Source: an uncultured Bacillales bacterium
GTDB lineage: Bacteria; Bacillota_I; Bacilli_A; RF39; UBA660
Direction of reading: 5' to 3'
Length of the DNA stretch: 64,000 nucleotides
NCBI GenBank assembly: GCA_946536225.1
Contig: CAMNEE010000001.1
Location: 333,484 to 397,483, forward strand
Both the position numbers and the translations under genes were made by a program. Below, piece by piece: positions 12,005-54,610 of the stretch. Each line of letters opens with the position of its first letter. Position 1 is the stretch's first letter. The notes under the pieces are model-generated. The model searched no databases. It was not told where the DNA came from and was given only the letters and a program-made list of their open reading frames with translations.

Positions 12005-14464
12005 ATGAATTATATTTTTATGTTAGGTAGCTGCCTTGTTTTTTCAATTATTTTAATTATTATTTTTAGACTAAAAACTCAAAAGTATGATGGAGAAACG
12101 CTTATTTATTCGATTCTTGGATTTGCCAATTGTATTGGTATTTCTTTTGAAATGGAATCTATTTATTTAAGTATTTATGAACCTAGTTCAATATTTTGTA
12201 GAATAGTTTTAAGACTTTATTTTAGTTATATAGTAATTTTTAATACTCTGTTATTATGTTATGTTTTTGATATTTACAAAACAGAGTTTAATTCTAAAAA
12301 ATACAGTATATTAAAATATCTTGTTGTATTTTTTTCATTTGGATTTATAGTTTTTAATTGCTTTTTACCATATGAATGCTTCCCTGGTTATGCTACAGGA
12401 ACTGCAGTTAAAGCTATTTATATTTATTCAGTTTTTTGTTTTGGCGCGTTACTTGTATCTATGGTTGTTAACAGAAAAAACTTAAGAATAAAAAAGATTT
12501 TCCCAATTTTATTTATGTCTTTTATTAAAGGATTACTTAGCCTTTTACAAAGAAATTATCCAGATATGACAATTTCAACTGCTGTAGATTTCCTTGTTGT
12601 ATTCTTGATGTTTCATACAATTGAAAATCCTGATTTAAGAATTGCTGAATTAGAAAAGAAAGCTGCTAGTGCTGCGGACAAAGCAAATAGAGCTAAAAGT
12701 GAATTCTTAAGTTCTATGTCACATGAAATAAGAACACCACTTAATGCTATTATTGGTTTTAGTGAGTTTATTTTAGAAACTGATGATATTAATGAAGCTC
12801 ACAATCAAGCTAAAGATGTTATTAATGCCTCTCAAATATTACTTGAGACAGTAAATGGAATACTAGATATTAGTAAAGTAGAAGCAGGTAAATTAGAAAT
12901 AGTAGAAGATAATTATAACTTAATGGAATTACTCGATAATACTGTTAAAATGGCTAAGGCTAGACTAGGGGACAAACCTCTAGACTTCAGAGTTCATTTT
13001 GCTCCTGATTTACCAGATTCATTATATGGTGATAAAGGTAATATTCAAAAGGTTCTTATTAACTTACTTACAAATGCTATTAAATATACTAATGAAGGTT
13101 ATATTGATTATTCAGTACAATGTACTAAAACTGATAATCATTGTAGATTAATAATAACTGTTAAAGACTCTGGTATTGGTATTAAGAAAGAAAATATTGA
13201 TAAGCTATTTACTAGATTTCAAAGATTTGATGAAAAGAATAATGGTACTATAGAAGGTACAGGATTAGGACTTGCTATTACTAAGCAATTAGTTGAGATG
13301 ATGGGCGGTAATATTGTTGTATCATCTATATATGGGGAAGGTTCAAACTTTACTGTTGCTTTAGATCAAAAGTTAAGTTTAACTCATGTTGCTCCTAAGA
13401 CTACTATTACTGATAGTCCAGTTGGAATTGACTTTAGTAATAAGAAAGTATTAGTAGTTGATGATAATAATTTAAATCTAAAATTAGCAGAAAGATTATT
13501 CTTAAAATATAATTGTCATATTAAAACAGTAAAAAGTGGTTTTGAATGTTTAGATTTAATAACTGCAGGTAATAAGTTTGATCTTATCTTCTTGGATGAT
13601 GTAATGCCTAAGATGCTTGGTAGTGAAACACTTGTTAGATTAAAGAAAACAGAAGGATTTAATACTCCTGTTGTTGCCTTAACTGCTAATGCTGTATCAG
13701 GTATGAGAGAAAAATATTTATTACTTGGTTTTGATGATTATTTAGCTAAACCAATTGAAAGAAATGAACTTGATATAATTCTTAAAAAATACTTATTAGA
13801 GAATGCTAAAGCTAAAGGATTAGGTGCTGAAGCACTTACTTCTAGTAAACCAATCGCTGTTATTGATCAAGGTGTTAAAGATGCAATTCTTTCAAGTCCT
13901 TCATCAAAAGATGTTGTATTAGCTGAAAAAGAAACAGTAAAAACAGTTATTAAAGAAAAAGCAAAAGAAGATACTCCTGTTACACCAAGTGTAACATCAA
14001 CTGAGATATCTTCAGTTGCTATTGCTCCTTTAACTCCTGTTAATAATGCACAAGCAAGTGAAGGTGGAAATGAAACATTTACAGATTATTCAAATAGAAG
14101 AATACTTGTAGTTGATGATAATAAATTAAATTTAAAAGTTGCTTTAAAATTCTTAAGTAGATATAAATTCCAAACTGATGAAGCTTATTCAGGACAAGAA
14201 TGTATTGATAAAGTTAAAGCTGGAAATCACTATGACATTATATTCATGGATATAATGATGCCTAATATGAGTGGTGTTGAAACATTCCATGAATTACAAA
14301 GAATTGAGGGATTTAGTGTTCCAGTTGTAGTAGCTTTAACTGCTGATGCAGTTGATGGAGCTCAAGAAAGATATTTAGGTGAAGGTTTTGCTGAATATAT
14401 TTCTAAACCTATAGTCAGAGAAAGACTTGATAAAGTTATTCACGAAATATTAGATAAGAAATAA
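12005..14464 (+). CDS. Hybrid sensor histidine kinase: multi-TM sensor, HisKA, HATPase_c, two receiver domains
   Basis: About 8 TM helices. H-box 'SMSHEIRTPLNAI', N box 'LLTNAIKYT', 'DSGIGI' and 'GTGLGL'. Receiver 1 has 'DLIFLDDVMP', 'ALTANA' and 'YLAKP'. Receiver 2 has 'DIIFMDIMMP', 'ALTADA' and 'YISKP'. No HPt domain. Confidence 0.8.
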   Translation: MNYIFMLGSCLVFSIILIIIFRLKTQKYDGETLIYSILGFANCIGISFEMESIYLSIYEPSSIFCRIVLRLYFSYIVIFNTLLLCYVFDIYKTEFNSKKYSILKYLVVFFSFGFIVFNCFLPYECFPGYATGTAVKAIYIYSVFCFGALLVSMVVNRKNLRIKKIFPILFMSFIKGLLSLLQRNYPDMTISTAVDFLVVFLMFHTIENPDLRIAELEKKAASAADKANRAKSEFLSSMSHEIRTPLNAIIGFSEFILETDDINEAHNQAKDVINASQILLETVNGILDISKVEAGKLEIVEDNYNLMELLDNTVKMAKARLGDKPLDFRVHFAPDLPDSLYGDKGNIQKVLINLLTNAIKYTNEGYIDYSVQCTKTDNHCRLIITVKDSGIGIKKENIDKLFTRFQRFDEKNNGTIEGTGLGLAITKQLVEMMGGNIVVSSIYGEGSNFTVALDQKLSLTHVAPKTTITDSPVGIDFSNKKVLVVDDNNLNLKLAERLFLKYNCHIKTVKSGFECLDLITAGNKFDLIFLDDVMPKMLGSETLVRLKKTEGFNTPVVALTANAVSGMREKYLLLGFDDYLAKPIERNELDIILKKYLLENAKAKGLGAEALTSSKPIAVIDQGVKDAILSSPSSKDVVLAEKETVKTVIKEKAKEDTPVTPSVTSTEISSVAIAPLTPVNNAQASEGGNETFTDYSNRRILVVDDNKLNLKVALKFLSRYKFQTDEAYSGQECIDKVKAGNHYDIIFMDIMMPNMSGVETFHELQRIEGFSVPVVVALTADAVDGAQERYLGEGFAEYISKPIVRERLDKVIHEILDKK

Positions 14465-17114: not shown

Positions 17115-18065
17115 ATGGCAGTTGTTTCTATGAGTTATTTATTAGAAGCAGGTGTTCAATTTGGACACCAAACTAAAAGATGGAACCCTAAAATGAAGGA
17201 ATACATCTTTACTACAAGAGACGATATTTATATTATCGACCTTGAAAAGACTGTTGCATGCATCGAAAATGCTTATGCAAAAGTAAAAGAAATAGCTGAA
17301 AATGGTGGAAATTTCTTATACGTTGGTACTAAGAAACAAGCTATTGAAGCAAGCGTAGAAGAAGCTCAAAGAGGAGAATCTTTCTATGTAACATCTAGAT
17401 GGTTAGGTGGAACTTTAACTAACTTCAGAACTATCAGAAGAAGAGTTAAAAGATTAGATGAAATCGAAGCTATGGAAAAAGATGGTACTTTTGAAAAATT
17501 ACCTAAAAAAGAAGTTATCGGTTTAAGAAAAGAATATGAAAAATTAAACAAAGTATTATGTGGTATCAGAGGAATGGATAAATTACCTAACGCTTTAATC
17601 ATTACTGATCCTTCTAAGGAAATTAATGCTATTAAAGAAGCTAGAATTTTAAATATTCCAGTATTTGGTATCGTTGATACTAATTGTGATCCTGATTTAG
17701 TTGATTATGTTATTCCTGGTAATGACGACGCTGTTAGATCAGTAAAAGTTATTTTAGGAGTATTAACTAACGCTATTTGTGAAGCTAAAGGTCTTCCAGT
17801 AGTTGATTATATTACTGAAGTAGAAAAACCAAAAACTCAAAAAGAATCTTTAGAAGAAGAAAAAGTTGAAAAAGTAGAAGCTAAAGAAGAAATTAAAAAA
17901 GAAGCTAAAAAAGCTACTAAGAAAGAAGAAGTAAAAGAAGAAGAAAAGTCAGAAAATGATTTATCTTCTAAGAATGTTACTGAACTTAGAACTATGGCTA
18001 AAGAAGCTGGAATTAAAGGTTATTCTACAATGAAGAAAGATGAATTAATCGCTTCATTAAACTAA
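17115..18065 (+). CDS. rpsB: 30S ribosomal protein S2 with KE-rich and Rho_N-like C-terminal extension
   Basis: '[19 protein letters not shown]' is the S2 signature. The last ~35 aa, '[30 protein letters not shown]', match the Rho termination factor N-terminal helical motif. Confidence 0.9.
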
Positions 18066-18097
18066 TTAAAACAAACTAAAATAAAGGAGAATATATT

Positions 18098-18973
18098 ATG
18101 ATATCTGCAAAAGATGTAAATGAATTAAGACAACAAACTGGTGCAGGAATGATGGACTGCAAAAAAGCTTTAACTGAATGCAATGGTGACATTGAAGCTG
18201 CTATTGATTGGTTAAGAGAAAAGGGTATTTCTAAAGCTGCTAAGAAAGCTGACAGAATTGCTGCTGAAGGTCTTGCAAATATTTATATAAATGGTAACAA
18301 AGCTGCTATCCTAGAAGTAAACTGTGAAACAGATTTCGTTACTAGAAATGCTGATTTCGTTAAAATGGTTGAAACTATTGGAAATACAGTTGTTAATAGT
18401 GATGCAAAAACTTTAGAAGAAGTTTTAGCATTACCAGTTGAAGGAACTGAAGGAGATGTATCTGCATTAATTGCTGCTAATACAGCTGTTATTGGAGAAA
18501 AATTATCTCTAAGAAGAATTGAAGTAGTTGATAAGAAAGATACTGACAATTTTGGTTCTTACATTCATATGGGTGGAAAGATTGCTGCTTTAATCGTAAC
18601 TGAAAATGCTAACGAAGATGTTGCTAAAGATGTTGCAATGCAAGCTGCTGCTATGAAACCTGCATATTTAAATGCTGAAGAAGTTCCTGCAGAAGTAATT
18701 GAAAAGGAAAAAGAAATTCTTAAAGAACAAGCTATTAATGAAGGAAAACCTGCTGATATAGCTGAAAAGATGGTTAATGGTAGAATTTCTAAATACTACA
18801 AGGAAAATTGCTTAGTTGATCAAGAATTCGTTAAAGATTCATCTATGGACATTAAGACTTATGTTAAAAATGCTGGTGGATCTGTAATTAAGATGATCAG
18901 ATATGAAGTTGGTGAAGGTATGGAAAAGAGAAGCGAAAACCTTGCTGACGAAGTTGCAAAACAATTAGCTTAA
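18098..18973 (+). CDS. tsf: Elongation factor Ts
   Basis: N-terminal UBA-like 'ISAKDVNELRQQTGAGMMDCKKAL'. 291 aa, immediately after rpsB. Confidence 0.9.
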   Translation: MISAKDVNELRQQTGAGMMDCKKALTECNGDIEAAIDWLREKGISKAAKKADRIAAEGLANIYINGNKAAILEVNCETDFVTRNADFVKMVETIGNTVVNSDAKTLEEVLALPVEGTEGDVSALIAANTAVIGEKLSLRRIEVVDKKDTDNFGSYIHMGGKIAALIVTENANEDVAKDVAMQAAAMKPAYLNAEEVPAEVIEKEKEILKEQAINEGKPADIAEKMVNGRISKYYKENCLVDQEFVKDSSMDIKTYVKNAGGSVIKMIRYEVGEGMEKRSENLADEVAKQLA

Positions 18974-18984
18974 TATATTAATCA

Positions 18985-19012
18985 AAAGACTTATTTTTAT
19001 AAGTCTTTTTTT
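18985..19012 (+). terminator. Rho-independent terminator after tsf
   Basis: aaagacttat-tttt-ataagtcttt followed by T-run. Confidence 0.7.
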
Positions 19013-19074
19013 GTTATTTATTGTAGTATAATTAATCTAAATATATGTGTATTATGCGCCTTAGGAGGAAGAAA

Positions 19075-19545
19075 ATGGATGTTAAATTAGAAGTGGTAAA
19101 GAATAAAGTTAAACTATCTAGATTATTACAATTATATCTACATAATATTAGTAGTGATTTTCCAATTGATATGGATTAAAGAACTGGTTTATATATTTAT
19201 GATGACCTACCTTTATACCTAACAAATTCAAAAGAACATGTTGCATATTTTATTATTGCTGATAAAAGGCTAGCAGGTTTTATATTAGCTGACTTTGGAA
19301 GTATTAATATTGTTCAAGAAATATTCGTACTAAATAATTTTAAAAGACAAGGAATAGGGGAAAAGGCTGTGAATATTTTATTTGATGAACATAAAGGTAA
19401 CTGGAAAATAAAAGCAGTACCATGTTCTAAGAGAGCAGAAGAGTTCTGGACTAATGTTGTTAATAAATATACTTCTGGTAATTTTAATAAGGAACTAGTC
19501 GGTAAGTATAATAGAGCAGTTATAACATTTAATAATTCTAAATAG
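19075..19545 (+). pseudogene. GNAT-family acetyltransferase interrupted by a single in-frame TAA (19177-19179)
   Basis: AGGAGG RBS at 19063-19068 and ATG at 19075. 34 codons are followed by TAA, then the same frame continues for 121 codons with a GNAT motif A 'QEIFVLNNFKRQGIGEKAV', ending at TAG 19543-19545. There is no in-frame ATG after the stop. Confidence 0.6.
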
Positions 19546-19591
19546 ATGAGTTTATTTTACTAGTTATGTTATAATCTAATTAGGAGGATAT

Positions 19592-21220
19592 ATGAAGAAA
19601 ATATATTTAATAGGATTTTTAATTGAACTATTAGTAATGAGTATTTTATATTATATGGCATTACCTGCAATGAATTTACATTCAACTGGTTTTTGGGCAT
19701 TTACTATATTTGCTTTATTACTATGGGGTTTTATTTGGACATTTATAAGATTAAGTCTAAATTTAGAAACATGTTTTGTTAAGAAAGGACGTAATTATAC
19801 TTTTAGAAAAACATCTAAAGGCAATAAATCATTTATACCATTTCTATTAGTTATAGTAATTGTAGCAGGTATATTGATTGTTAATTTATTCTGTTCACCA
19901 TTCTTTAATGCTAAATCTTACTCAAAGAGAATCGTGATAGATGAAACTGGAGACTTTATTAAAGACATTAAAGAAGTAGACTTTAATAGCCTACCTTTAC
20001 TTGACCGTGATTCAAGTGAGAAATTAGGAGACAGAGTAATGGGACAAATGAGTGATTTTGTATCTCAATACTATGTATCTAATCAATATACTCAAATAAA
20101 TTATAAAAACGATATTGTTAGAGTTACGCCTTTAGAATATGCTGACTTTATTAAATGGATATTTAATAGAAATGAAGGTGTAAAAGGATATATTAAAGTT
20201 AATTCAGTAAATGGTAATACTGAGTTAGTAAAACTAGAAAAGGGTATGAAATATATGCCATCTGCATACTTTAATGATAATCTTTATAGAAAGTTAAGAT
20301 TTAAATATCCAACTAAGATATTTGGAGAAGCTAAATTTGAAATTGATAATGAAGGAAAACCTTTCTGGATTGTTCCTACATATGGTTATATAGGTGTTGA
20401 ATGTAAGACTAAAGTAACAGGAGTTGTAATAATGGATCCAGTTACTGGAGAGTCTAAACTATATAAAATTGATAAAGTTCCTTCATGGGTAGATAATGCT
20501 TATAATGCTGAATTATTAATTGAACAAATTAATAACTGGGGTACTTATAGAGATGGATTCTTAAATAGTATATTTGGTCAAAAGAATGTTGTTAATACAA
20601 CAACTGGATATAACTATTTAGCAATGGATGATGATGTATATCTTTATACAGGTATTACATCTGTATTAAGTGATGAATCTAATCTTGGATTTATTCTTTC
20701 TAATATGAGAACAGGTAAGACTGTATTCTATTCAGTTCCTGGTGCTGAAGAGTATTCAGCTATGGCTTCTGCTGAGGGACAAGTTCAACAAATGAGTTAT
20801 GTTTCTACATTCCCATTATTAATTAATTTAAACAATAAACCAACATACCTTGTAAGCTTAAAAGATGCTGCTGGTTTAGTTAAAATGTATGGTTTTATAG
20901 ATGTAGCTGATTATCAAAAAGTAGTTGTTACAGACGCTTCTAGTGGCATTATAAAGGCATCTCAAAATTATTTAAACAAGTATGCTGATGAGATATCAGA
21001 AAGTCTACTTGTAACTAAGACTATTAAAGTTAAGAGAATTAGTAATGCTATTATAAATGGTAATACTTATTATTATATTACTGATAGTGATGATCATAGA
21101 TATAAGTTATCAATTGAATTAAGTGATACATTAGCATTTATAAGTGTTAATGATGAAATTAATATTGGTTACTATGAAACTGATAGTAGCATTATTGATG
21201 TAGTAAAAGTAATTAAATAA
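19592..21220 (+). CDS. Hypothetical membrane-anchored protein (N-terminal TM helices, large extracytoplasmic domain)
   Basis: AGGAGG RBS. N-terminal hydrophobic helices. 542 aa with no recognised motif. Confidence 0.45.
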   Translation: MKKIYLIGFLIELLVMSILYYMALPAMNLHSTGFWAFTIFALLLWGFIWTFIRLSLNLETCFVKKGRNYTFRKTSKGNKSFIPFLLVIVIVAGILIVNLFCSPFFNAKSYSKRIVIDETGDFIKDIKEVDFNSLPLLDRDSSEKLGDRVMGQMSDFVSQYYVSNQYTQINYKNDIVRVTPLEYADFIKWIFNRNEGVKGYIKVNSVNGNTELVKLEKGMKYMPSAYFNDNLYRKLRFKYPTKIFGEAKFEIDNEGKPFWIVPTYGYIGVECKTKVTGVVIMDPVTGESKLYKIDKVPSWVDNAYNAELLIEQINNWGTYRDGFLNSIFGQKNVVNTTTGYNYLAMDDDVYLYTGITSVLSDESNLGFILSNMRTGKTVFYSVPGAEEYSAMASAEGQVQQMSYVSTFPLLINLNNKPTYLVSLKDAAGLVKMYGFIDVADYQKVVVTDASSGIIKASQNYLNKYADEISESLLVTKTIKVKRISNAIINGNTYYYITDSDDHRYKLSIELSDTLAFISVNDEINIGYYETDSSIIDVVKVIK

Positions 21221-21221
21221 A

Positions 21222-21246
21222 AGTGAATCAAAAGATTCACTTTTTT
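21222..21246 (+). terminator. Rho-independent terminator
   Basis: agtgaatc-aaaa-gattcact followed by T-run. Confidence 0.6.
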
Positions 21247-21264
21247 AATGAATTAATAATTTGT

Positions 21265-21296
21265 TCAAAAAAAAGAATAGTTATGAACTATTCTTA
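21265..21296 (-). terminator. Terminator for pilB (convergent)
   Basis: Hairpin aagaatagtt / aactattctt. On the minus strand it is followed by a T-run (an A-run at 21265-21272 on plus). Confidence 0.5.
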
Positions 21297-23285
21297 TATT
21301 TTTGTTTCATTTTGAATTGTTTCTGCTGCTTTATCAAATATGCTTGCCATGTTATTAACTGGAGCACTTGGAGTTACTGGTGTAACTGGAGTAACCGGTT
21401 TAGCAGGAGTACTAGGAGTCACAGGAGTAACTGGATTAACTGGAGTACTTGGAGTCACAGGAGTAACTGGATTAACTGGAGTACTTGGAGTCACAGGAGT
21501 AACTGGATTAACTGGAGTAGCAGCAGGAGTACTTGGTGTTACAGGTTTAATTGGTGTAACTGGAGTACTAGGTGTACTTGGAGTACTCATAAGAGGAGAA
21601 CTACTTAAGAAATCTGGTAATTTATTTGCTTCTTTAGTAATTACATCTTCTTTCTTTTCTTCAACTGGTTTTGTGTTAGCAGGAGGAGCGGCTACTGGAG
21701 GAGTTGGAACTTTTGGTTCTTCCTTTTTTACTTCAGTAACAGGAGTTTTAACTTCTTCCTTCTTTTCAGAAATAGAGTTTATTTCAGCTGCTTCAAGTTG
21801 TTCTTGTAATCCAAGTTGAGTATCTGCTCCCAAGTCATCATCTAAGTCTATTAGTTTTAATACTTCATCGAATGATGTATCTCCGTGAAGACATTTTTCA
21901 AGTCCATCTTCAAGCATCGTTTTAGTTCCACCTTCACCATATACTATTTTTCTTAGTTCATGTTTACCAACATTACCTGTTATAGCATCTCTTACGGCTT
22001 GGTTAAGTAAAAGAACTTCATGTACTGCGATACGTCCTCGATAACCTTTAGAACATTCTTTACATCCAACTGGTTCGTATATTTCATTTACATCTTTACC
22101 AATTGTTTTCTTAAACATTTCTTTTTCATATTCTGTTGTTGGTCTTAGTTTTTTACATTTACTACATAGACGTCTTGCAAGTTTTTGTGAAACGATACCA
22201 GATAGAGCAGAACCTAATAGATATCTTTCAACATTCATATCTGTTAAACGTTCAATTGTATTAAGCGCGTTGTTTGTATGTATTGTACTTAATACTAAGT
22301 GACCAGTTATGGCTGATCTAACAGCTATACGTGCAGTTTCTTCATCACGAATCTCACCAATCATGATAATATCAGGGTCTTGACGTAAGATAGAACGTAG
22401 TACTGTTGCAAATGTAAGTCCTATATCAGAGTTAACCATTACTTGGTTAATACCTTCAATATTCATTTCTACTGGGTCTTCTACAGTGATTATATTAGTT
22501 TCTTCAGTATTAAGAGCTTGTAGTATAGAATATACTGTAGTAGATTTACCTGAACCAGTAGCACCTGTTACTAAGATGATACCATTTGGTAGGGACATCA
22601 TTCTCTTAATTTTTTCGATATTGTAATCTGATATATCTATATGTTCAATACCTTGATCTGACATTGTATAATCCATGATACGCATAACGACTTTTTCGCC
22701 AAGGTTAGTAGGTAAGACAGATACACGGATATCAATAGGTTGATCATTAATAGTTGTTCTTATGGCACCATCTTGAGGTACACGTGATTCAGTAATATTC
22801 ATACCTGAAATAATTTTTACACGTGTTACAAGATTTCTTTTAACATATAAAGGTACAATAGAGTAGTCATGTAATTTACCATCTATTCTTATTCTTATTT
22901 TTATACCTTCTTCAAATGGGTCCATATGAATATCGGAAACACCTTTATCAATTGCATCTAGTATTATTGAGTTTACTATATCAGTTATTGGGGTATTATT
23001 GTAATCAAAGGTAACCATGCCTGTTAATCCTGCTTCTTTAGTAGCAGCACCAGCACCAGCTGTAGCATTTGATAAATCTAATTCTTGTGCTTTAGGTTCA
23101 TCTCCAGGAAGAGCAGGAGCGTCTCCAGGTAGTTTTTGAGTAACTTCATTTCCAGGTAAAGCTGTGTTGTTAACTGGTTTTACTTCTTCAGGATTTCCTG
23201 GTAAACTAGCTGCATGTGCTTCTGTTGATGGTGCAACAGGTGTTACTGGAATATTTGTATTTTCTTTATTATCCATGATTATCAA
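21294..23285 (-). CDS. pilB: Type IV pilus / type II secretion assembly ATPase (PilB/GspE/ComGA family) with Pro/Thr-repeat C-terminal tail
   Basis: Walker A '[11 protein letters not shown]', Walker B '[13 protein letters not shown]', His box '[13 protein letters not shown]' and a tetracysteine motif 'CSKCKK...CKECSKG'. The C-terminal ~200 aa are low-complexity with ([12 protein letters not shown])n. Confidence 0.85.
21361..21590. repeat. Tandem 36-bp coding repeats (3 perfect plus degenerate flanking copies) encoding the [12 protein letters not shown] repeat of the PilB tail
   Basis: ggagtcacaggagtaactggattaactggagtactt repeats exactly at 21415, 21451 and 21487, with degenerate copies on either side. 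Confidence 0.8.
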
Positions 23286-23358
23286 CCCAATCTTATTTAT
23301 TCTATAAAAATTATATTAAATATAACAATAATAGTCAACAAACCTAAGGGTAAAAAAA

Positions 23359-23386
23359 CAAAATAAAAAGGAGTAATTATTTACTC
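23359..23386 (-). terminator. Terminator downstream of ponA (minus strand)
   Basis: aaaggagtaa-ttat-ttactccttt hairpin with a T-run on the minus strand. Confidence 0.5.
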
Positions 23387-23389
23387 CTT

Positions 23390-26300
23390 TTAGCATGTAC
23401 TTGCAATTTTTATTGTAGTTGTTGCTAGTATTGAATTATTATTTGATCTAAGTGCAAATTTTACTGTGTATGTTTTATTATCATCTTTTAATTGTGTTGT
23501 GTTTCCTGACTCATCATATACTGTTGCAGTAACACCATAGTTTGAGTCACCTGATATATCAGCACCATTTCTAGTAATATTTACTTTAGATGAAACATTT
23601 GAGCTTCCTATGTTTCTATAAGTTATATAGTTAACACATGAGTTTCCTTTAAAACTAATTGCATAGGAATCTTGAGGTCCAGATACTTTTGCAGTTATAC
23701 CAGATGATTGGTTACATCCAAATCTTTCGTATGAAGATTTAACTGTATAAGTAACTTCACCTGAGTCAACATTAACAGTCATCGAGTTATCAGTAGTAAA
23801 TCCAATTTCTGTTGTTCCCATCGAAGTAGTCTTATAAACTCTATAACCAAATTGTCCAAATACATTATTATTATAATCTATTCTTTGTTGTAAGTATTTA
23901 TCAGCCCAAGGTTTATAAATCTTTGAATCATTGAAGTATTTAGTTAACCAATCTACACTTATAGCATTAGGTGTATCTGCTTTATTCCATGAAAGATGAA
24001 CTTTATCACCACTCTTAGTAGCTGTTAAGTTAGATGGATTCTTTAAAGTAGCAAATCTTTCTGATTCTTCACTTGGAGCAGTACCATCTTTAAAGTAAGA
24101 TGTTTCTTTTAATTCACCAGGCGTACAAGCAGATGCTAATTTAACTGGCTCACTTTGTAATTCTATTGTAGCAGTTTCCACTGTATCAGGTTTCTTAAAT
24201 TTCTTAACAAGAGGATATTTATCAGTATCATATGATCTCATTATACCTTTAGTTAATGCTTTAGTAATTTCACGTCTTGCTTGACCACCTTCAGAGTTAG
24301 ATAACCAATATTCTTTAGTAATATTATCATAACCATACCAAGTTGAAATAGAGTAGTCAGGTGAATAAGCATTAGTCCATGAGTCACCTATGATATCTCC
24401 TTTAATACCTTTTGCTCTTACTTGAGCTTCATCAACTGTTGAAGTACCAGTTTTACCAGCTATATCAACACCACTGACTCTTCCTGTTGTAACATTACCA
24501 GAAGAAACAGCATACATTAATATATCATTTATTATGAAAGCAGTGTCTTCTGACATAACTTGTACTTTCTTAGGATTTACTTGGTATTTTTCACCAGTAT
24601 CTGTAAATTCTAGTGAAGTGAATGAATGAGGTTCAATATAAGTTCCACCTCTTGCAAAAGCAGCATAAGCAGCTGATGACATAAGTGGATTTGCACCATC
24701 CCAACCACCGATAGAAGTAGTCTCTAAGATTTTTCCTCCATCTTCAATTGGATACCATCCTAAGTTATTAGCAAATTCTTTCTTTTGTTCATTTGTTGTT
24801 TGTTGGAAAGTAAGTAGAGCAGGAATATTTCTTGATTGAGCAAGTGCTTCTTTAATAGTCATTATTCCTTTTAACTTATTATCCCAGTTTTTAATATGAC
24901 CACCTACAGTATAACCATAAGTATCATCTATTATTGTTTGGGAAGATCCCCAACCAAGATACTCAATTGCAGGACCATAGTCTAGTATTGGTTTTGCAGT
25001 AGAACCAGGGTGACGTTTAATTTGAGTAGCATAGTTAAGTGTACTTGCACTCTTCTTATTACGTCCAGCACCAATAGCTACTATTGAACCATCTCTAACA
25101 CTGGTAATTGCAATACCAGCTTGTACTACATCATTTTTCCATTTATAGGTAACTCCGTTTTCAACATCGTTAACTACATCTTGTCTAACCGGATCCATTG
25201 TTGTATAGATATTCATTGATACAGCATATGGATTTTGTTTTGTTCTATCTTTTACTTCTTGTACTACAGTATCTATAAATGGAATATATCTATTTATTCC
25301 ACTTGAAGTACCTTCAACTAGTAAATCTTTAATATTTACTTTTTTAGCTTCTTCGCATTCTTCTTTAGTTATATATCCATGTCTTTCCATAAGGTTTAGA
25401 ACTATATTTTTTCTTTGATCAGCTTTTTCTGGATAACTAAAAGGATTATAAGCACTAGGTGCTTGGAATAAACCAGCTATTAAAGCAGCTTCAGGTAGAG
25501 TAAGTTCTGATGTACTCTTACCAAAGTAAACTTTAGATGCTTGTTCAACACCATGTGCTGCACCTAGAAGAGGAATATTTACATAAAACTCTAATATTTC
25601 TTCTTTAGTATATTGTTTTTCAAGTACGAATACTGAAAGGTAAATATCAGTAAACTTTCTTATAATACCTGCAATACCACTATCAACTGTACTTGTTGCA
25701 GTAAGTTTTGAAACTTGCATGGTAAGGGTAGAACCACCACCAGCATCAGAGTGACCAACAAGTTGACCAAGAACAGCTTTAGTAAATCTCGCTAAGTCTA
25801 GTCCATTATGTTGGAAGAATCTTGAGTCTTCTGTTGCAACTATAGCATCAATTAATACTTCAGGTAATTCATCATAAGAAATAACCTCTCTGTTTTCAGC
25901 ACCAAGTCTTGCAAATTCATTACCATATATATCATACAGTACTGTAGAACTTGATGAATAAAGTTTTTCTTTTGATACTTCAGGAGCATGTATTACTACA
26001 TATCCTACAAATAGAATACCTAGAATACATCCTAGTATTAGAAGAATCATTATTATAATTAATAATTTATCTCTAAAAGTTCCATACTTTAATCTTTTCT
26101 TTAATCTTGTCATATCGAAAATCATCACCTTAAATCTATTTATTAAAAATATAAGTGGCCATAAATAAAACTTGCTCTTTTCGTATTTAAGTTTTGTATT
26201 AATCATTTCTGAATAATCATCATGACGCACAATTTCTTTTCGTTCTTGTTTATTATATCTTTTTTTCGTATCCTTTTTAAGAGTAGAAGCCTTTACTTTA

Positions 26301-26539
26301 CATTTTTTCGTATCCTCTTTATAAGGTTTCTTTTTTTGATTACCTTCAAGTACAACTAGTGTTTCTTTTTTAGGTAAAACAAATTGTTCTTGTTTTTTAA
26401 CTTTTGTTTTAATTTTTCTTTTTGTAGTAGAAGTAGTAGTTTTCTTTTTAGTACTTACTTTTACCTCTTTTACATTTTTTATATTAGATGTAGTCTTTGT
26501 TGTTTTTTTCTTTCTTCTTCGTCTCTTTGTTGTTGCCAT
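23390..26539 (-). CDS. ponA: Class A penicillin-binding protein 1A (transglycosylase/transpeptidase) with ~150-aa polybasic cytoplasmic N-terminal tail and C-terminal beta-domain extension
   Basis: GT51 motif 'EDSRFFQHNGLD', transpeptidase SxxK 'GSTAKP', and a TM helix 'LLIIIMILLILGCILGILFV'. The N-terminus is K/T/R-rich ('MATTKRRRRKKKTTK...'). Directly downstream of recU, as in Bacillus. Confidence 0.85.
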   Translation of the reverse strand: MATTKRRRRKKKTTKTTSNIKNVKEVKVSTKKKTTTSTTKRKIKTKVKKQEQFVLPKKETLVVLEGNQKKKPYKEDTKKCKVKASTLKKDTKKRYNKQERKEIVRHDDYSEMINTKLKYEKSKFYLWPLIFLINRFKVMIFDMTRLKKRLKYGTFRDKLLIIIMILLILGCILGILFVGYVVIHAPEVSKEKLYSSSSTVLYDIYGNEFARLGAENREVISYDELPEVLIDAIVATEDSRFFQHNGLDLARFTKAVLGQLVGHSDAGGGSTLTMQVSKLTATSTVDSGIAGIIRKFTDIYLSVFVLEKQYTKEEILEFYVNIPLLGAAHGVEQASKVYFGKSTSELTLPEAALIAGLFQAPSAYNPFSYPEKADQRKNIVLNLMERHGYITKEECEEAKKVNIKDLLVEGTSSGINRYIPFIDTVVQEVKDRTKQNPYAVSMNIYTTMDPVRQDVVNDVENGVTYKWKNDVVQAGIAITSVRDGSIVAIGAGRNKKSASTLNYATQIKRHPGSTAKPILDYGPAIEYLGWGSSQTIIDDTYGYTVGGHIKNWDNKLKGIMTIKEALAQSRNIPALLTFQQTTNEQKKEFANNLGWYPIEDGGKILETTSIGGWDGANPLMSSAAYAAFARGGTYIEPHSFTSLEFTDTGEKYQVNPKKVQVMSEDTAFIINDILMYAVSSGNVTTGRVSGVDIAGKTGTSTVDEAQVRAKGIKGDIIGDSWTNAYSPDYSISTWYGYDNITKEYWLSNSEGGQARREITKALTKGIMRSYDTDKYPLVKKFKKPDTVETATIELQSEPVKLASACTPGELKETSYFKDGTAPSEESERFATLKNPSNLTATKSGDKVHLSWNKADTPNAISVDWLTKYFNDSKIYKPWADKYLQQRIDYNNNVFGQFGYRVYKTTSMGTTEIGFTTDNSMTVNVDSGEVTYTVKSSYERFGCNQSSGITAKVSGPQDSYAISFKGNSCVNYITYRNIGSSNVSSKVNITRNGADISGDSNYGVTATVYDESGNTTQLKDDNKTYTVKFALRSNNNSILATTTIKIASTC

Positions 26540-26545
26540 ATAGTT

Positions 26546-27106
26546 TTACTCCTTAAAATATATGTTATCTAATACTTCTAAGTAGTCTAATCTTGGATTG
26601 ATTTTTTTAGTAACTATATATCCATGTTCTTTAATATATTCAAATGGAATACTTTTTCTTTCAAAATTATCAATAAAATTTATAATTACATTTCCATCTA
26701 GATAATAAACTTCATTATTCATACTTATTAATAAAAAGGTAATTCCTCCATGTTTTAATATACTTCTCATATGTTTAATTTGATGATCATGTATATTAGA
26801 AAGAGGAAACCTGGATTTTTCTTTAGTTTCTTTAGCATCAAAATCAATATATCTACCTTTATAAATACCATTGTAGTCTAGGGTAGAAGGAGATTCGAAA
26901 TAAGCTTCTGTTATTTTTCTTCCTTTTGATGTAAAACATGCATTAACTATTTTTATTGGTGTAGGTTTTTTATGGATATTAGCTTTATCAATTTCTAAGT
27001 AATAATTATTAGATAAATTAATTAGATTTTCTAAATCCATTCCACGATTAGCGTGTGTTGTATTTACTTTTGTATATTCTTTTTTTATATTACTGGGATA
27101 ACGCAT
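26546..27106 (-). CDS. recU: Holliday junction resolvase RecU
   Basis: Strong match to B. subtilis RecU ('KKPTPIKIVN', 'DYNGIYKGRYIDFDAKETK', 'HDHQIKHM'). recU-ponA synteny. Confidence 0.9.
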   Translation of the reverse strand: MRYPSNIKKEYTKVNTTHANRGMDLENLINLSNNYYLEIDKANIHKKPTPIKIVNACFTSKGRKITEAYFESPSTLDYNGIYKGRYIDFDAKETKEKSRFPLSNIHDHQIKHMRSILKHGGITFLLISMNNEVYYLDGNVIINFIDNFERKSIPFEYIKEHGYIVTKKINPRLDYLEVLDNIYFKE

Positions 27107-27228
27107 ATTCTCACCAATATAATTATAATATATGTTAGTAGTTTTTTCTATATCAAAAGATACTTTTATGCTATTTGCAAATAAGAGGTAATCATTATAT
27201 AATATCTTAAAGACGAAGGGATGAAACT

Positions 27229-27816
27229 ATGAAAATAACTAGTTCTAATTTAGAAACAATTGCTGTTAGAATGAGTCAATATCCAACTGATCATAGAGAT
27301 GAGTTTATGCTATGCGGAAGAAGTAATGTAGGTAAGAGTAGTTTTATTAATACCATATTAGGTAGAAAAAACTATGCTCATACTTCTGCAAAACCAGGTA
27401 AAACACAATCACTTAATTTCTATTTAATTAATGATGATTTTTATTTAGTAGATGTACCTGGATATGGATATGCTGATGTATCTAAAGAAAAACAACAAAA
27501 GTTTGGTTTAATGATAGAAGAATATATTAAAACTAGATCTAATCTAAGATGTGTATTCTTACTTGTAGATTTTAGACATAAACCTGATGAAAATGATTGT
27601 TTAATGTATAATTTCTTAAAATACTATGAAATACCAACCGTTGTAGTTGCAACTAAATTTGATAAAGTAAAACCATCTGTTAGAGATAAACAAGAAAAAA
27701 TATTAAAAGATACATTAAAACTACTACCTGATGATAAGCTTGTATTATTCTCAAGTGTTACTAAAAAAGGTAGAGAAGATGTATATGGCATATTGTCAAA
27801 TTATTTAAAGAAATAA
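27229..27816 (+). CDS. engB: Ribosome biogenesis GTPase EngB (YsxC/YihA)
   Basis: G1 'GRSNVGKSSFIN', 'DVPGYGY', and 195 aa. Confidence 0.85.
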   Translation: MKITSSNLETIAVRMSQYPTDHRDEFMLCGRSNVGKSSFINTILGRKNYAHTSAKPGKTQSLNFYLINDDFYLVDVPGYGYADVSKEKQQKFGLMIEEYIKTRSNLRCVFLLVDFRHKPDENDCLMYNFLKYYEIPTVVVATKFDKVKPSVRDKQEKILKDTLKLLPDDKLVLFSSVTKKGREDVYGILSNYLKK

Positions 27817-27817
27817 A

Positions 27818-27843
27818 GATAATAGTTTATATTATCTTTTTTT
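27818..27843 (+). terminator. Rho-independent terminator after engB
   Basis: agataat / attatct hairpin followed by T-run. Confidence 0.55.
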
Positions 27844-27869
27844 GTGTTAATATTAAGTTAGGTGATAGT

Positions 27870-28391
27870 ATGAAAAAGAATGGTTTTACATTAGTAGAAT
27901 TACTTGCTGTTTTAGTTATTTTAGGATTATTAATTACACTTGCAGTGCCTAATATATTAGGTGTATCTAAGAATGTTAAAGAAAAGAGTTATCAAACTAA
28001 GATTGAAATAATTGAAAATGCTGCAATTACATATACAAGTGATACAGTTAAAAAGAGTCTTCAAAATCTAAACGATACTGCTATGGTTGGATATTATTGG
28101 ATAAATGTTAGTAAAGATAGTGATGATAATAAGACTGTTAATGCTAAAGCTACAAAGGATGCAACACATATTTATCCAGCTAAAGTTTTTACTGTTCAAG
28201 AACTTGCTGATGCTCGTGAAATTGATTATGATGATGAAGATAACAAAAGTGTAATTAATCCAGTTAATAATAAATCTATTAATGCATGTAATGTTTATGT
28301 TTATTTAAAAAACAATCGTGTATATTCTGTATTTGATAGAGTAAATTGTAATAGTAAAGTTAAGAGTACAGCTGTTAGGCTAGAAAAATAA
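27870..28391 (+). CDS. Type IV prepilin / pseudopilin (class III signal peptide)
   Basis: N-terminus 'MKKNG|FTLVELLAVLVILGLLITLAV' has F+1, E+5 and a hydrophobic helix. 173 aa. Extended -10 TGTTAATAT at 27845-27853. Confidence 0.8.
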   Translation: MKKNGFTLVELLAVLVILGLLITLAVPNILGVSKNVKEKSYQTKIEIIENAAITYTSDTVKKSLQNLNDTAMVGYYWINVSKDSDDNKTVNAKATKDATHIYPAKVFTVQELADAREIDYDDEDNKSVINPVNNKSINACNVYVYLKNNRVYSVFDRVNCNSKVKSTAVRLEK

Positions 28392-28487
28392 TTTTGAATT
28401 TTATAAACACGCTTCCAAAGGGTCTAAATGTTGATATTTAGGCTCTTTTATGTTATCATAAATTGACTTAATGAAGGGGTGAAGAAC

Positions 28488-29798
28488 ATGAGAAAAACTG
28501 TTTGTTTAGTTGGAAGACCTAACACTGGAAAATCTTCTTTATTTAATAGAATGGTTATGCAAAATAAAGCTATTATTTCTGATATAGCTGGTACTACTCG
28601 TGATAGACTATATGGTATTTGTTATCATAAAGATAAATCTTTTAATGTTATTGATACAGGTGGTATAGATTTAGAACATGCAGACTTTAATACTAATATT
28701 AAAATGCAAGCTCAACTTGCTATAGATGAAGCTGATGTAATAGTATTTGTTGTTGATGGTAAAGAAGACTTAACTCAAAATGACTTTGCTGTTCGTAATA
28801 TGCTTTTAAGAACTGATAAAAAGGTAGTAGTAGCTATTAATAAAATAGATAATCCTGAAAGAGAAGATAATATTTATAACTTCTATGAATTAGGATTTGA
28901 ACATATGGTTACCATCTCAGTTGAACATAAAAGACATATTGAAGAATTACTTGATATGATTACTGAAGACTTTGGTCCTTATACTACAGAACCAAGAGAT
29001 GAAGTATGTAGATTCTCGCTTATTGGTAGACCTAATGTTGGTAAGTCTTCACTTGTTAATGCTATTCTTGGTGAAGATAGACAAATTGTAAGTGATGTTG
29101 AAGGTACTACAAGAGATGCAAGTGATTCTAAGTTTACTTATAATAAACAAGACTATGTTGTTGTTGATACAGCAGGTATGAGAAAACGTGGAAAGATATA
29201 TGAAGACTTAGAGAAGTATTCTATTATAAGAGGACTAAGAGCAATTGAAAGAAGTGACGTTTGTTGCGTTTTAATAGATGCGTCTGTTGGTATTATTGAA
29301 CAAGATAAACATATCGTACAAATTGCTTTGGAAAATAATAAAGCCATAGTACTTGTTGTTAATAAATGGGATACCGTTAAGAATAAAGATCAAGCTTTAA
29401 AAGAATGGAAACAAAAAATAGAAAAAGAATTTCAATTTATTCCATATGTTAGAACAGTATTCTTAAGTGCTAAAGAAAGAACTAAGATAAATGATTTAAT
29501 GGAAGCTATTATTAAAGCATATGAATCATATACTAAAGAAGTTAAAACTAGTACTTTAAATGATATTGTTAATGATGCTTATGCTCTTCATATGGCTCCA
29601 AGTTATAAGAAGAGAAGACTTAAAATATACTTTGTAACTCAAACTGATATTTGCCCTCCAAGATTTACTTTTAATGTAAATAGTAAAGGATTAGTACATT
29701 TTAGTTATAAGAGATATTTAGAAAATCAAATAAGAGCTAATATAGATTTAGAAGGAACACCTATCGTTATACAATTTAAGAATAAAGGTGATGAATAA
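28488..29798 (+). CDS. der: Ribosome-associated GTPase Der (EngA), double GTPase
   Basis: Two G domains, 'VGRPNTGKSSLFN' and 'IGRPNVGKSSLVN', plus a KH-like C-terminus. ATG 28488 lies 5 nt after GAAGGGGTGA; the track start at 28479 is GTG. Confidence 0.9.
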   Translation: MRKTVCLVGRPNTGKSSLFNRMVMQNKAIISDIAGTTRDRLYGICYHKDKSFNVIDTGGIDLEHADFNTNIKMQAQLAIDEADVIVFVVDGKEDLTQNDFAVRNMLLRTDKKVVVAINKIDNPEREDNIYNFYELGFEHMVTISVEHKRHIEELLDMITEDFGPYTTEPRDEVCRFSLIGRPNVGKSSLVNAILGEDRQIVSDVEGTTRDASDSKFTYNKQDYVVVDTAGMRKRGKIYEDLEKYSIIRGLRAIERSDVCCVLIDASVGIIEQDKHIVQIALENNKAIVLVVNKWDTVKNKDQALKEWKQKIEKEFQFIPYVRTVFLSAKERTKINDLMEAIIKAYESYTKEVKTSTLNDIVNDAYALHMAPSYKKRRLKIYFVTQTDICPPRFTFNVNSKGLVHFSYKRYLENQIRANIDLEGTPIVIQFKNKGDE

Positions 29799-47511: not shown

Positions 47512-48675
47512 ATGAAGGATAAAAACGGATTTATTGCTACATCAGTTTTGTATGCTTTTTTACTTTGTTTCCTTACTTTATTCTTAGCTTATATGGCTAA
47601 CTATATTCAAAATAAATTATTGATTGATAGGGTTGCTGATTTAGCAAAAGAAGATTTATCAAAATATAATAATACTTATGTTACAGATCTTGCTTTAGGA
47701 GATTATGTAATTTTCGATACAATTGATCCTGAAGGAGCAGATGCTTTATCAGGAGTTAAAGTGTATGATTCTCCAATTAGTCCAGATGCTAGATGGATTC
47801 TATTTAAAATAGAAGGTGGAGATTTAATAGATAAAAATGAGGGTAAGTATGAAGACTCAGTATACTATTTTGTATCTGATTCAACTGCTCAAAAATATCA
47901 ACCTTTAGTTAATTCACTTGCACTTGATAATAGTGGAGCTTATGCACCTATTACAGATAATACTAATTTAAATACTAATACATACAGTCCAAATTTAAAA
48001 AATATTGAAAGAGTTTTAAACAGTCATATATATTATTCATCAAGAAAGTATTGGTCTTCAGCAGAAGCGGATGAAACTGCAAAAACTGCGTATAAATATG
48101 CATTCCCATATACTGCAAATGGTGGAATAACAGATATTAGATATTTAAATGATGATGACTTAAATGAAATATTAAGTTTAAATGATAATGTTGTTGATGC
48201 AATTATGGATCAAGGAGATAAGTTTGTATTCTGGAACACTGGTACTTATTTTGACAGTACAAGACGTGGATTTACGGTTTATAAAAGAGAATATTTAGAA
48301 TTCCTTGGACCAACTGATACTAATAGTGGTACTAATCCAGCCGAAGTTAACAGAATATGTCATACAAGTGGTGCTTCTTCTAATGGAGGTATTATAGACT
48401 TTAGCAATAATAGTGGTAATGACTTAAGTTATGGGCATTTATATTCAGGTATAATTGGACAAAACTTTGTTGATTATTGCTATTATGTAACAAATGATAC
48501 TTTAGGAGATTGCCAAGATAGTAGTAATTATATTTGTAGAAGCAGTAATGGAGAGTATCCTCCTAGATTTGTTGTGGTATTAACTGTTAATAAAGGTAAT
48601 CTTGTTAGAAATGGTAGAGCGGACTCTGGAAATGGAACAGCTACATTACCATATTTATTTACAACGGGGGCATAG
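47512..48675 (+). CDS. Pilin-like protein lacking Glu+5 (PilX/ComGG/GspK-like minor pseudopilin), 387 aa
   Basis: 'MKDKNG|FIATSVLYAFLLCFLTLFLAYMA' is a class III signal-like N-terminus with Ser at +5. First of three co-oriented, tightly spaced genes. Confidence 0.55.
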   Translation: MKDKNGFIATSVLYAFLLCFLTLFLAYMANYIQNKLLIDRVADLAKEDLSKYNNTYVTDLALGDYVIFDTIDPEGADALSGVKVYDSPISPDARWILFKIEGGDLIDKNEGKYEDSVYYFVSDSTAQKYQPLVNSLALDNSGAYAPITDNTNLNTNTYSPNLKNIERVLNSHIYYSSRKYWSSAEADETAKTAYKYAFPYTANGGITDIRYLNDDDLNEILSLNDNVVDAIMDQGDKFVFWNTGTYFDSTRRGFTVYKREYLEFLGPTDTNSGTNPAEVNRICHTSGASSNGGIIDFSNNSGNDLSYGHLYSGIIGQNFVDYCYYVTNDTLGDCQDSSNYICRSSNGEYPPRFVVVLTVNKGNLVRNGRADSGNGTATLPYLFTTGA

Positions 48676-48677
48676 AT

Positions 48678-51464: not shown

Positions 51465-51478
51465 AAAGGACAAATAAT

Positions 51479-54400: not shown

Positions 54401-54562
54401 TCTACAGGATTTAGTGGAAAAGGACAAGTACCAATTAAGATTATTACTAAAGCAAATCAAACAGTAGCTTGTAGCGTTTATAATACTCTTAAGAGTAAAT
54501 ATCCAAGTGTAACTGTTACATATACAGATGGTGTTACTGTCTTAGATCCAACAAAATGCTAA
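51479..54562 (+). CDS. Giant modular type IV prepilin-like protein (1027 aa) with C-terminal DUF285-like 'MF..C..L' repeat domain
   Basis: 'MKRNYNQSG|MTIIEVLVSVIIISF' has M+1 and E+5. From aa ~380 there are ≥8 repeats of the form 'MFADCIRLESINF', 'MFKGCKRIT', 'MLDNCNSLTTF', 'MFYNCSIKKL', 'MFFNCSSLRGL' and 'MFEYAGVEA'. Confidence 0.7.
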   Translation: MKRNYNQSGMTIIEVLVSVIIISFVMSLLFVLLLQVQNANSAAKKKSNLLISQAVITKAIEQDMIEIGVSAVSACTYDDFNMFSNQIDESEPYACARLEFNKSYDINDLGYIMVYKQNENAYDNATWVVKYARGYYDNCVMGNSPSDGSSWIESYSVVQKLNNDVTLGSFVDRVTGKTRYVSLNYSAEYDPTEKYSRQKVNSANIVIPIVDSNNYHYDIDLSFSFRLYYPDETDPSKAKQRIDFVCDDEGVDCVCTSSKDENCNKTYSSNLPGRTKSETDKTYNYTCTATKKSVSTSMGINKDFLTLSNVNKAGIVPDNVRKITFSNSLDSNGFGGYGIDVSLAQNKTSILYYEFDDNTDTYDIMIGQSGGVTVAGKSMANMFADCIRLESINFKNFSSNGIEDMKNLFKNCEKLTNDGIDGFLNLNFDGVRKMSAMFKGCKRITVSPFRQSSGDAFNLSSLVDAFEMFSNSGLTEFIYYKDLWCDNVTSFLRLLSDSNIQTVVIGDISRSVSMNNLNSMAHMLDNCNSLTTFKLINCNFPALNTIERICFHVSSSNVSVMSALGTYNSETHVYSGGGMQFVNLYTPNLENLSYAFYYEKINSSLNISNWTIVNNYNADHMFFGAGLTAFSFGDDAFGTEGYGGPYNGSYMFYNCSIKKLINNDTRESVLIHANYMFYYNYLDTIDGGFYLPNVVDCTSMFSTAGPSSKAVFNYIKEGSLSKCEKFTNMFLATRYQVIYLDNINSEVTEGTVSCVNMFAAGSSSGKNTLKNVYMRNANFKTRVSMSSMFAYNWSLRFVDFDYVKGDWDNNKYYDGTYTYYGMDTPDTSDDTNIDHIGNFENFFDKDSSAAIPGSMEKMFFNCSSLRGLPDNFFSTMNIKSVSNCTAMFEYAGVEAILGGIRNKFGVLLDFDFNSNPVLPYMFHGVDNFSYIKLPKLTKSTNLVDMFNNVGGNSDRITDLTIDLSSLTTNLDTFISTGFSGKGQVPIKIITKANQTVACSVYNTLKSKYPSVTVTYTDGVTVLDPTKC

Positions 54563-54581
54563 TTTATATTAGCATTTTTTT
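54554..54581 (+). terminator. Rho-independent terminator after pilin operon
   Basis: aaatgctaat-ttat-attagcattt followed by T-run. Confidence 0.7.
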
Positions 54582-54610
54582 ATGTTATAATTCTTTTTAT
54601 GGTGAGGAAG

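Follow-up and report, generated by a model that had tools for sequence, protein, structure and literature searches.

Canonical PilB, PilF and GspE/EpsE share an N2 and C-terminal ATPase core with a tetracysteine motif. In canonical PilB, the stator is the presumed contact of the N1 domain, and this domain is said to tell extension from retraction ATPases (PMC11656802). In Com-type machines, which possess no PilMNO, the membrane complex consists of the ATPase and the platform protein only (PMC10191384). Here, we describe an ATPase gene on the reverse strand of a 64,000-nucleotide stretch of contig CAMNEE010000001.1 (the window, i.e., the whole stretch of DNA that was analysed), which comes from an uncultured Bacillales bacterium. 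Its product exhibits the core motifs and the tetracysteine of PilB, PilF and GspE/EpsE, and its relatives are linked to pilins, PilC and PilD. However, the N1 (GSPII/MshEN) domain is absent, and the core is flanked by a low-complexity N-terminal arm (N-arm) and by a long C-terminal extension (C-arm or tail). A C-terminal tail together with a missing N1 is the defining architecture of a family of ATPases from uncultured gut and rumen Bacilli, and the query tail holds three islands under purifying selection, motifs A, B and C, separated by spacers that drift. From this sequence pattern, we propose with a probability of roughly 0.55 that the arms act as a flexible tether or recruitment device by way of motifs A-C in the tail and the LPG[DN] copies in the N-arm.

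ComGA proteins are short (~320-360 amino acids, aa) and are not known to carry long arms. The query protein resembles ComGA in its monoderm host and in the missing N1 domain; however, its gene is not located in a comGA-GG operon, and its score against the ComGA model is below the cut-off. The conserved C-terminal extension of cyanobacterial PilB1 recruits Hfq (with EbsA), accessory proteins that are essential for piliation (PMC12288463). This extension is the best functional precedent, although cyanobacterial PilB1 keeps its N-terminal domains, the query tail is much longer, repetitive and variable, and no sequence relationship between the two is expected. CpaF carries an N-terminal disordered arm of ~79 aa, which most CpaF orthologues lack, and truncation of this region does not abolish in vitro ATPase activity but leads to fewer pilus extension and retraction events (PMC12019362). 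CpaF/TadA is thus similar in having a disordered arm on a PilT/VirB11-like motor, and differs in belonging to the Tad ATPase clade and in the N-terminal position of the arm.

Core, extension and family

The gene and the parts of its product are located in the window as follows (nt, nucleotides; dN/dS, ratio of nonsynonymous to synonymous substitution rates).

21294..23276, reverse strand: type IV filament assembly ATPase gene, 660 aa, with the stop codon at 21294-21296 and an N-terminus, MDNKE, common to homologues P0001-P0015
23001..23276, reverse strand: N-arm, aa 1-92, low-complexity, A/P/T/N/E/G-rich, net charge -8, in the place of N1 (GSPII/MshEN)
23100..23204, reverse strand: four LPG[DN] motifs, at aa 25, 40, 49 and 56
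21861..23000, reverse strand: canonical N2 + C-terminal ATPase core, aa 93-472, matched by Pfam T2SSE and by solved structures, with a dN/dS of 0.06-0.07
21786..21860, reverse strand: motif A, aa 473-497, an acidic patch and a predicted helix prolonging the last core helix
21645..21785, reverse strand: spacer 1, aa 498-544, Lys/Glu/Pro-rich, with many indels among close relatives
21588..21644, reverse strand: motif B, aa 545-563, LPDFLxxSPLM, conserved in the query clade
21357..21587, reverse strand: spacer 2, aa 564-640, Pro/Thr/Val-rich, holding a 36-nt tandem array
21297..21356, reverse strand: motif C, aa 641-660, a predicted terminal amphipathic helix and putative docking peptide

The first-pass annotation, made from the sequence alone, had described the catalytic core as canonical, which is confirmed. 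Pfam T2SSE (PF00437) matches aa 97-476 with 409.1 bits (gathering cut-off 24.9), and the solved GspE chain 4pht_A aligns to the query with an E-value of 1.5e-103, the PilB/PilF chains with 1e-97. The Walker A motif GATGSGKST is found at aa 238-246 (22539-22565, reverse strand), the Asp box ITVEDPVE at aa 263-270, Walker B at aa 300-311 and the His box at aa 324-334, all four being invariant or nearly so in an alignment of 44 family members. In the same alignment, the four cysteines of the two CxxC pairs that form the tetracysteine zinc motif (CSKC at 371 and CKEC at 405; 22053-22166, reverse strand), i.e., C371, C374, C405 and C408, are invariant. The core is thus ordinary, and a new catalytic mechanism is not expected.

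The class of the motor is less easily named. The tetracysteine motif in the C-terminal domain is that of an extension-type (PilB/GspE) rather than a retraction-type (PilT) ATPase. The PilT family model scores 178 bits only, compared with 465-472 for the PilB and GspE models, and the query is also nearer to the GspE/PilB models than to the ComGA model (NCBIfam). However, none of the equivalog cut-offs is reached: the PilB model TIGR02538 gives 464.8 (cut-off 675.65), the GspE model TIGR02533 gives 471.8 (cut-off 630.25), and the ComGA model NF041000 gives 263.5 (cut-off 300) with a match spanning aa 106-370 only. Together with the missing N1, these scores lead us to place the query in none of these orthologue groups.

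Solved-structure alignments define both ends of the core. The solved chains of GspE, PilB and PilF cover query residues ~93-475, with alignments that begin at residue 93-100, which, in agreement with Pfam, shows that N1 is absent, a point missed in the first-pass annotation. At the other end, a ~200-aa extension had been placed directly after the zinc motif. The extension is real, but ~65 residues of canonical C-terminal domain come after the second CxxC. Since the solved GspE/PilB chains stop at, or at most ~30 chain residues from, the equivalent of query residue ~475, the extension comprises aa ~476-660, i.e., ~185 aa.

The extension is a family trait rather than a peculiarity of this protein. 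The 120 best homologues are mostly metagenomic, a few of them from metagenome-assembled genomes (MAGs) labelled Bacilli or Erysipelotrichales, and all tails measured among them are longer than ~35 aa. A scan of one genome per species found a relative in at least 274 genomes; the best 80 of these relatives all come from MAGs of uncultured gut or rumen organisms, with labels such as Bacilli, Tenericutes and Erysipelotrichaceae, and all 80 possess a post-core tail (21-385 aa, median 73). In a core-only search of 1.84 billion cluster representatives, the 17 family clusters (clustered at 50% identity; 58% identity or more) all showed tails, of 79-991 aa, while their N-extensions have a median of just 22 aa. 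Among the 109 single-domain PilB/GspE representatives that come next, in contrast, the median length is 4 aa for the tail and 177 aa for the N-extension, which equals N1 in size. The earlier statement that traffic ATPases normally lack such an extension is thereby borne out. Of these 109, 12 carry tails of at least 30 aa; three of the 12 are low-complexity, and most look, as judged from sequence, like folded fusions (receiver-, cyclic-nucleotide-binding- and FHA-like domains, zinc ribbons). The suggestion that the extension is lineage-specific thus holds at the level of the family; it is the Pro/Thr-rich composition that is limited to the narrow clade of the query, while the tails of other clades are rich in Asp, Glu, Ile, Asn and Lys. 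No description of this ATPase family was found in the literature that could be searched. Separately, P0122-P0151 include a group of ~980-1050-aa proteins with two T2SSE-type ATPase stretches per chain, 35-42% identical to the query core.

The N-terminus had also been described as low-complexity, and aa 1-96 indeed contain no Pfam domain. The closest homologues P0001-P0026, among them the 91%-identical P0001 of GCA_016648615.1, carry 3-5 LPG[DN] copies each. Besides the four in the N-arm, a single LPG[DN] was counted over all long open reading frames (ORFs) of the window taken together. A Pfam search at E <= 1 of five long-tailed relatives gave no domain in either arm, with sub-threshold SSSPR-51/MucBP noise on the N-terminal repeats.

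In the sister clades P0028-P0120 (e.g., P0080, aa ~40-150; L001, 10001-10400), the N-arm is not of the LPG[DN] type and carries a ~24-aa repeat, QYVDEFGNPIDPSLIDENGNYIG, which is highly conserved, occurs in 1-4 tandem copies and gives no Pfam match. In a low-confidence AlphaFold2 (AF2) model, this repeat forms short strands with a predicted local distance difference test score (pLDDT) of 56-68, above that of its flanks. The MshEN consensus is RLGxx...Q; the repeat is unlike it and has no Pfam match, and its assignment as an MshEN cyclic di-GMP motif was therefore rejected. The MshEN cyclic di-GMP module itself is built of two 24-aa motifs (PMC11656802).

The genes around family members point to the machine. 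Pilin genes adjoin the family ATPase in 40 of 80 loci, and PilD and PilC genes in 9 of 80. In distant relatives (~60-66% core identity), the ATPase gene has divergent prepilin genes on one side and a convergent prepilin peptidase gene on the other; beside the peptidase, a PilC-type platform protein is encoded that is unusually long (547-656 aa) and contains two T2SSF stretches. Because distant relatives lie beside pilin, PilC and PilD genes, the family most probably represents genuine type IV filament extension motors. In two of the long PilC-type proteins (L036, 8093-9736, reverse strand; L047, 8417-10387, reverse strand), the first T2SSF domain begins at residue 211-315.

Conserved motifs and drifting spacers in the C-arm

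The tail is not uniformly low-complexity, a point missed in the first-pass annotation; it consists of spacers that separate the three conserved motifs. Codon-level pairwise comparison of the query with P0004 and P0003, both ~90% identical to it, gave a dN/dS of 0.04-0.06 for motif A, as low as that of the core, 0.12-0.23 for motif B and 0.20 for motif C, compared with 0.67-0.97 for spacer 1 and 0.47-0.48 for the repeat-bearing spacer 2; the N-arm exhibits 0.23-0.26. Thus, tails that range from 21 to 991 aa combine a variable linker with short conserved motifs (0.04-0.23 in motifs vs. 0.47-0.97 in spacers), as expected of a leash.

The motifs differ in how far they can be followed. A pattern based on motif A, [LIV]K[LM][IV]DL[DEK]DDLG, occurs just after the core in 119 of the 120 closest homologues, and almost every one of the 80 species-level relatives retains its acidic beginning. 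In lineages neighbouring the query clade, the counterpart of motif B (..SFLxNNPLF..) is the actual C-terminus. Motif C is nearly identical in P0001-P0004 and recognisable in P0005-P0010, with a hydrophobic moment of 0.45. Across the family, clade-specific terminal peptides are conserved whatever the length of the spacer in front of them.

The spacers contain what had been noticed at first, i.e., a Lys/Glu/Pro-rich stretch (aa 498-544) and a 12-aa repeat. Tandem Repeats Finder (TRF) resolves the repeat as a 36-nt unit in 4.2 copies with an 89% match (21369-21519), two copies being identical in DNA. The array differs between close relatives, as had been anticipated: P0003 and P0004 (86-90% identical) show a 45-48-nt unit in ~3 copies with a 79% match. 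Spacer 2 is composed of 32% P, 25% T, 19% V and 10% S, and the order-promoting residues W/F/Y/I/L/C/M make up 11.7% of the tail vs. 28.7% of the core, as is common in disordered sequence. Both arms have a G+C fraction of 0.38-0.40, higher than the 0.277 of the window; thus, AT drift alone does not account for the P/T/A bias of the query. We also considered a Pro/Thr linker that is secreted or attached to the wall, and rejected it, as the protein has neither a signal peptide nor a transmembrane segment and is otherwise a cytoplasmic ATPase. Elsewhere in the window, a hybrid histidine kinase (12005-14464, forward strand) contains a Pro/Thr-rich interdomain linker, ..EDTPVTPSVTSTEISSVAIAPLTPVNN.. 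(~aa 640-690), which is like the ATPase spacer in composition; since this kinase is cytoplasmic, such a composition serves linkers in this organism.

The same variability could point to largely neutral growth, with slippage repeats tolerated in a small, AT-rich, drift-prone genome and only the first post-core residues needed, for folding. The enormous family-wide variation in tail length and composition, the spacer dN/dS of 0.5-1.0, the nearly identical DNA repeats, which point to recent slippage or recombination, and the N-, K-, I-, D- and E-rich sister-clade tails, a composition that AT bias favours, are all consistent with it. However, islands B and C persist within and at the end of variable sequence with a dN/dS of ~0.1-0.2, terminal peptides are retained at any spacer length, complete loss of the tail occurs in none of the 80 species-level relatives or 17 family clusters, and the query arms deviate from the window in the direction opposite to mutational bias. 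We therefore consider largely neutral growth unlikely.

An artefact, e.g., a frameshift, read-through, a wrong start codon or a fusion with a downstream gene, is even harder to reconcile with these data. The ORF (21294..23285, reverse strand) is continuous over 663 aa when counted from the listed TTG start at 23285, which is in frame and three codons 5' of the ATG at 23276. This ATG is the likeliest start, giving 660 aa and the N-terminus MDNKE, because homologues share MDN(K/Q)E N-termini. The signals around the gene are the following.

23366..23391, reverse strand: terminator-like hairpin and T-run at the end of the upstream recU-ponA unit
23310..23338, reverse strand: sigma-70-type promoter-like site, TTGACT-17-TATAAT, 5' of the ATPase gene, recognised by its consensus match alone (11/12 positions)
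21219..21244, reverse strand: terminator-like hairpin 3' of the ATPase gene

An additional AT-rich hairpin with a T-run directly follows the stop codon (~21265-21293). The recU-ponA terminator-like hairpin, the promoter-like site and the hairpins after the stop suggest that the ATPase gene is monocistronic and transcribed on its own. Two observations could be read in favour of an artefact, namely an AGGA 9 nt 5' of the internal Met87 and spurious ORFs that overlap the repeat on the opposite strand (21261-21819, forward strand; 115 and 159 aa, Gly/Val/Thr- or Trp/Ser/Asn-rich). The latter two are mirror artefacts of the Pro/Thr repeat and not genes. In contrast, the window and independent assemblies of many samples all show an unbroken frame, and over 200 homologues have an uninterrupted ORF. 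None of the indels shifts the frame, both arms exhibit a dN/dS below 1, with values well below 1 in the conserved tail motifs, and the promoter-like site and the terminator-like hairpins fit the gene as drawn from ATG 23276. The earlier judgement that the extension does not arise from a frameshift or annotation error is thus supported, and we regard an artefact as very improbable.

Proposed role of the arms

Since N1 is missing, N1 is thought to contact the stator and Com-type machines have no PilMNO, the motor may need other means of staying at the platform. Based on homology, the N2 and C-terminal core would assemble into a hexamer of the usual kind, which is driven by ATP and works on a PilC-type platform, in a type IV filament machine, either a pilus or competence-like, of a low-GC lineage of uncultured gut Bacilli. 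The docking of the motor to a PilM/GspL scaffold, the presumed task of N1 in PilB/GspE, would be replaced by two disordered arms with short linear motifs. The C-arm would follow the order motif A, charged spacer, motif B, Pro/Thr spacer of recently amplified 36-nt repeats and motif C, and would not be expected to contribute to catalysis. A hexamer would thereby carry six leashes, whose conserved peptides would dock the motor to a partner at the machine; candidates are the platform protein and other factors that are accessory or lie near the membrane. The direction could also be the opposite, with the peptides recruiting such factors to the motor. For the spacers, flexibility and a roughly right length would suffice.

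The conserved oligomerising core, the ~50-fold range of spacer length and the drifting spacers with conserved islands and tips lead us to infer a flexible leash with docking peptides, i.e., arms that are disordered and bind a partner. FtsZ, with its C-terminal linker and peptide, and SSB, with its linker and acidic tip, share such a design: an oligomerising core, a hypervariable linker and a short conserved peptide for the docking of partners. Acidic-hydrophobic tips like that of SSB are found in many family members, e.g., DDDLMNMEF and DEELIDIEF. However, FtsZ and SSB are unrelated proteins, the query tip is predicted to be a non-acidic amphipathic helix, and the query possesses extra internal motifs and the N-arm. 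The earlier proposal that the tail mediates tethering thus fits the anatomy and the published precedents, while the cytoskeleton or platform protein named as partner is one that we can only infer.

Several points weigh against the tether proposal. PilC and PilD were not found by tblastn in the 64-kb window. Tip sequences differ between clades, so that no single universal partner site is evident, and a tail length range of 21-991 aa is also expected under relaxed constraint. The motif dN/dS values are rough, as each motif comprises 19-25 codons. Motifs B and C are not aligned reliably by a family-wide MAFFT alignment of the tails, and their conservation is therefore claimed within the query clade only. 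The AF2 models are poor even for the core and give no contact information. The query model, used for secondary-structure hints alone, was built from 44 sequences with a mean pLDDT of 48 and is poor because the alignment is shallow; a model of sister-clade P0083 was built from 34 sequences and reached a mean of 43. With low confidence, the query model predicts three helices (469-481, 490-505 and 643-659); the third has a pLDDT of ~69 vs. less than 40 for the spacers. As the confidence of the core is poor too, the low pLDDT of the arms is weak evidence of disorder.

The acidic character of many tails raises another possibility, in which the tail would be autoregulatory: motif A and/or the terminal helix would fold back onto the ATPase, e.g., onto basic surfaces, the platform-binding face or the interface of N2 and the C-terminal domain. 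They would gate the hexamer until displaced by a signal or partner, with the spacer setting the effective local concentration. An own-core target has a parallel in SSB, whose acidic tip binds its own oligonucleotide/oligosaccharide-binding (OB) fold. Motif A abuts the core and is the most conserved element of the tail in dN/dS, and its pattern matches 119 of 120 close homologues. In addition, the net charge of family tails is negative (median -0.17 per residue), 86 of 164 tips are negatively charged overall and have a hydrophobic residue at one of the three final positions, and the lengths of N-arm and tail co-vary (Spearman 0.68). On the other side, the models are of low confidence and give no information on contacts, and the query tail is weakly acidic (-7 over 188 aa) with a tip that is not acidic. 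We regard autoregulation as rather unlikely; it and the tether model are not mutually exclusive.

Neighbouring genes and significance

The locus is arranged in the order der <- pilin <- engB / recU -> ponA -> ATPase / <- tsf <- rpsB (window 26546-29798 and 17115-23285; L001, L085-L087). This der-to-rpsB order is conserved across the long-arm subfamily, in which the ATPase gene always follows recU-ponA, and is not found in most short-tail relatives. The recU-ponA-ATPase synteny extends over the query clade and the long-arm sister clades, and most other relatives do not share it. Just upstream of the ATPase gene, the class A penicillin-binding protein (PBP1; 23390-26539, reverse strand) carries a strongly basic (+38) cytoplasmic N-tail of ~153 aa (26081-26539). 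The PBP1 proteins upstream of long-arm ATPases in other genomes also have N-tails, of 77-292 aa and a net charge of +26 to +51, which is unusual for PBP1.

A bolder version of the tether proposal, to which we assign a small chance, is the following: in this lineage of monoderm Bacilli with reduced genomes, the multivalent arms would form a short-linear-motif hub that arranges the entire machine, standing in for N1 and PilMNO and possibly pairing with the PBP1 N-tail. The pairing would be electrostatic, between the basic N-tail and the acidic ATPase arms, and would couple filament assembly to cell-wall synthesis. If true, peptidoglycan would be remodelled where the filament crosses the wall.

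Pilins are encoded in the window as well. A standalone pilin gene lies at 27870-28391, and three pilin-like ORFs lie at 47512-54562; Pfam N_methyl matches were obtained at 27870-28391 and 51479-54562. The three prepilin-like ORFs (387, 928 and 1027 aa) follow lon and are followed by a Lon_C/PDZ protease-like gene (47512-55612, forward strand), and the 1027-aa ORF matches both N_methyl and DUF285. These ORFs could encode tip adhesins or minor pilins of very large size.

Other neighbours were noted. In sister clades, a conserved 99-102-aa ORF without a Pfam match lies between ponA and the ATPase gene (L001, 9593-9901; L085, 6595-6894; L086, 6592-6900; L087, 6607-6906); tblastn found no homologue of it in the window. 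A 542-aa membrane protein, also without a Pfam match, is encoded convergently with the ATPase (19592-21220, forward strand), and its position is kept in L003, L004, L083 and L084. Ribosomal protein S2 (17115-18065, forward strand) carries a C-terminal Rho_N domain (Pfam E 6e-11), a fusion also found in L001, L083 and L085-L087.

The family bears on how extension ATPases are brought to the platform and kept there, a question that is sharpest in minimal monoderm machines without PilMNO. With a catalytic part that is ordinary, the novelty of this family lies elsewhere: in place of a folded N-terminal domain for docking, it appears to have adopted disordered arms that bear short motifs, and its spacers vary in length to an extraordinary extent, a natural experiment on how a rotary motor is tethered. 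As baits for partners, the motif peptides could be taken as they are. The family is also widespread, with at least 274 species-level genomes among uncultured Bacilli of the human, rodent, rabbit and ruminant gut.

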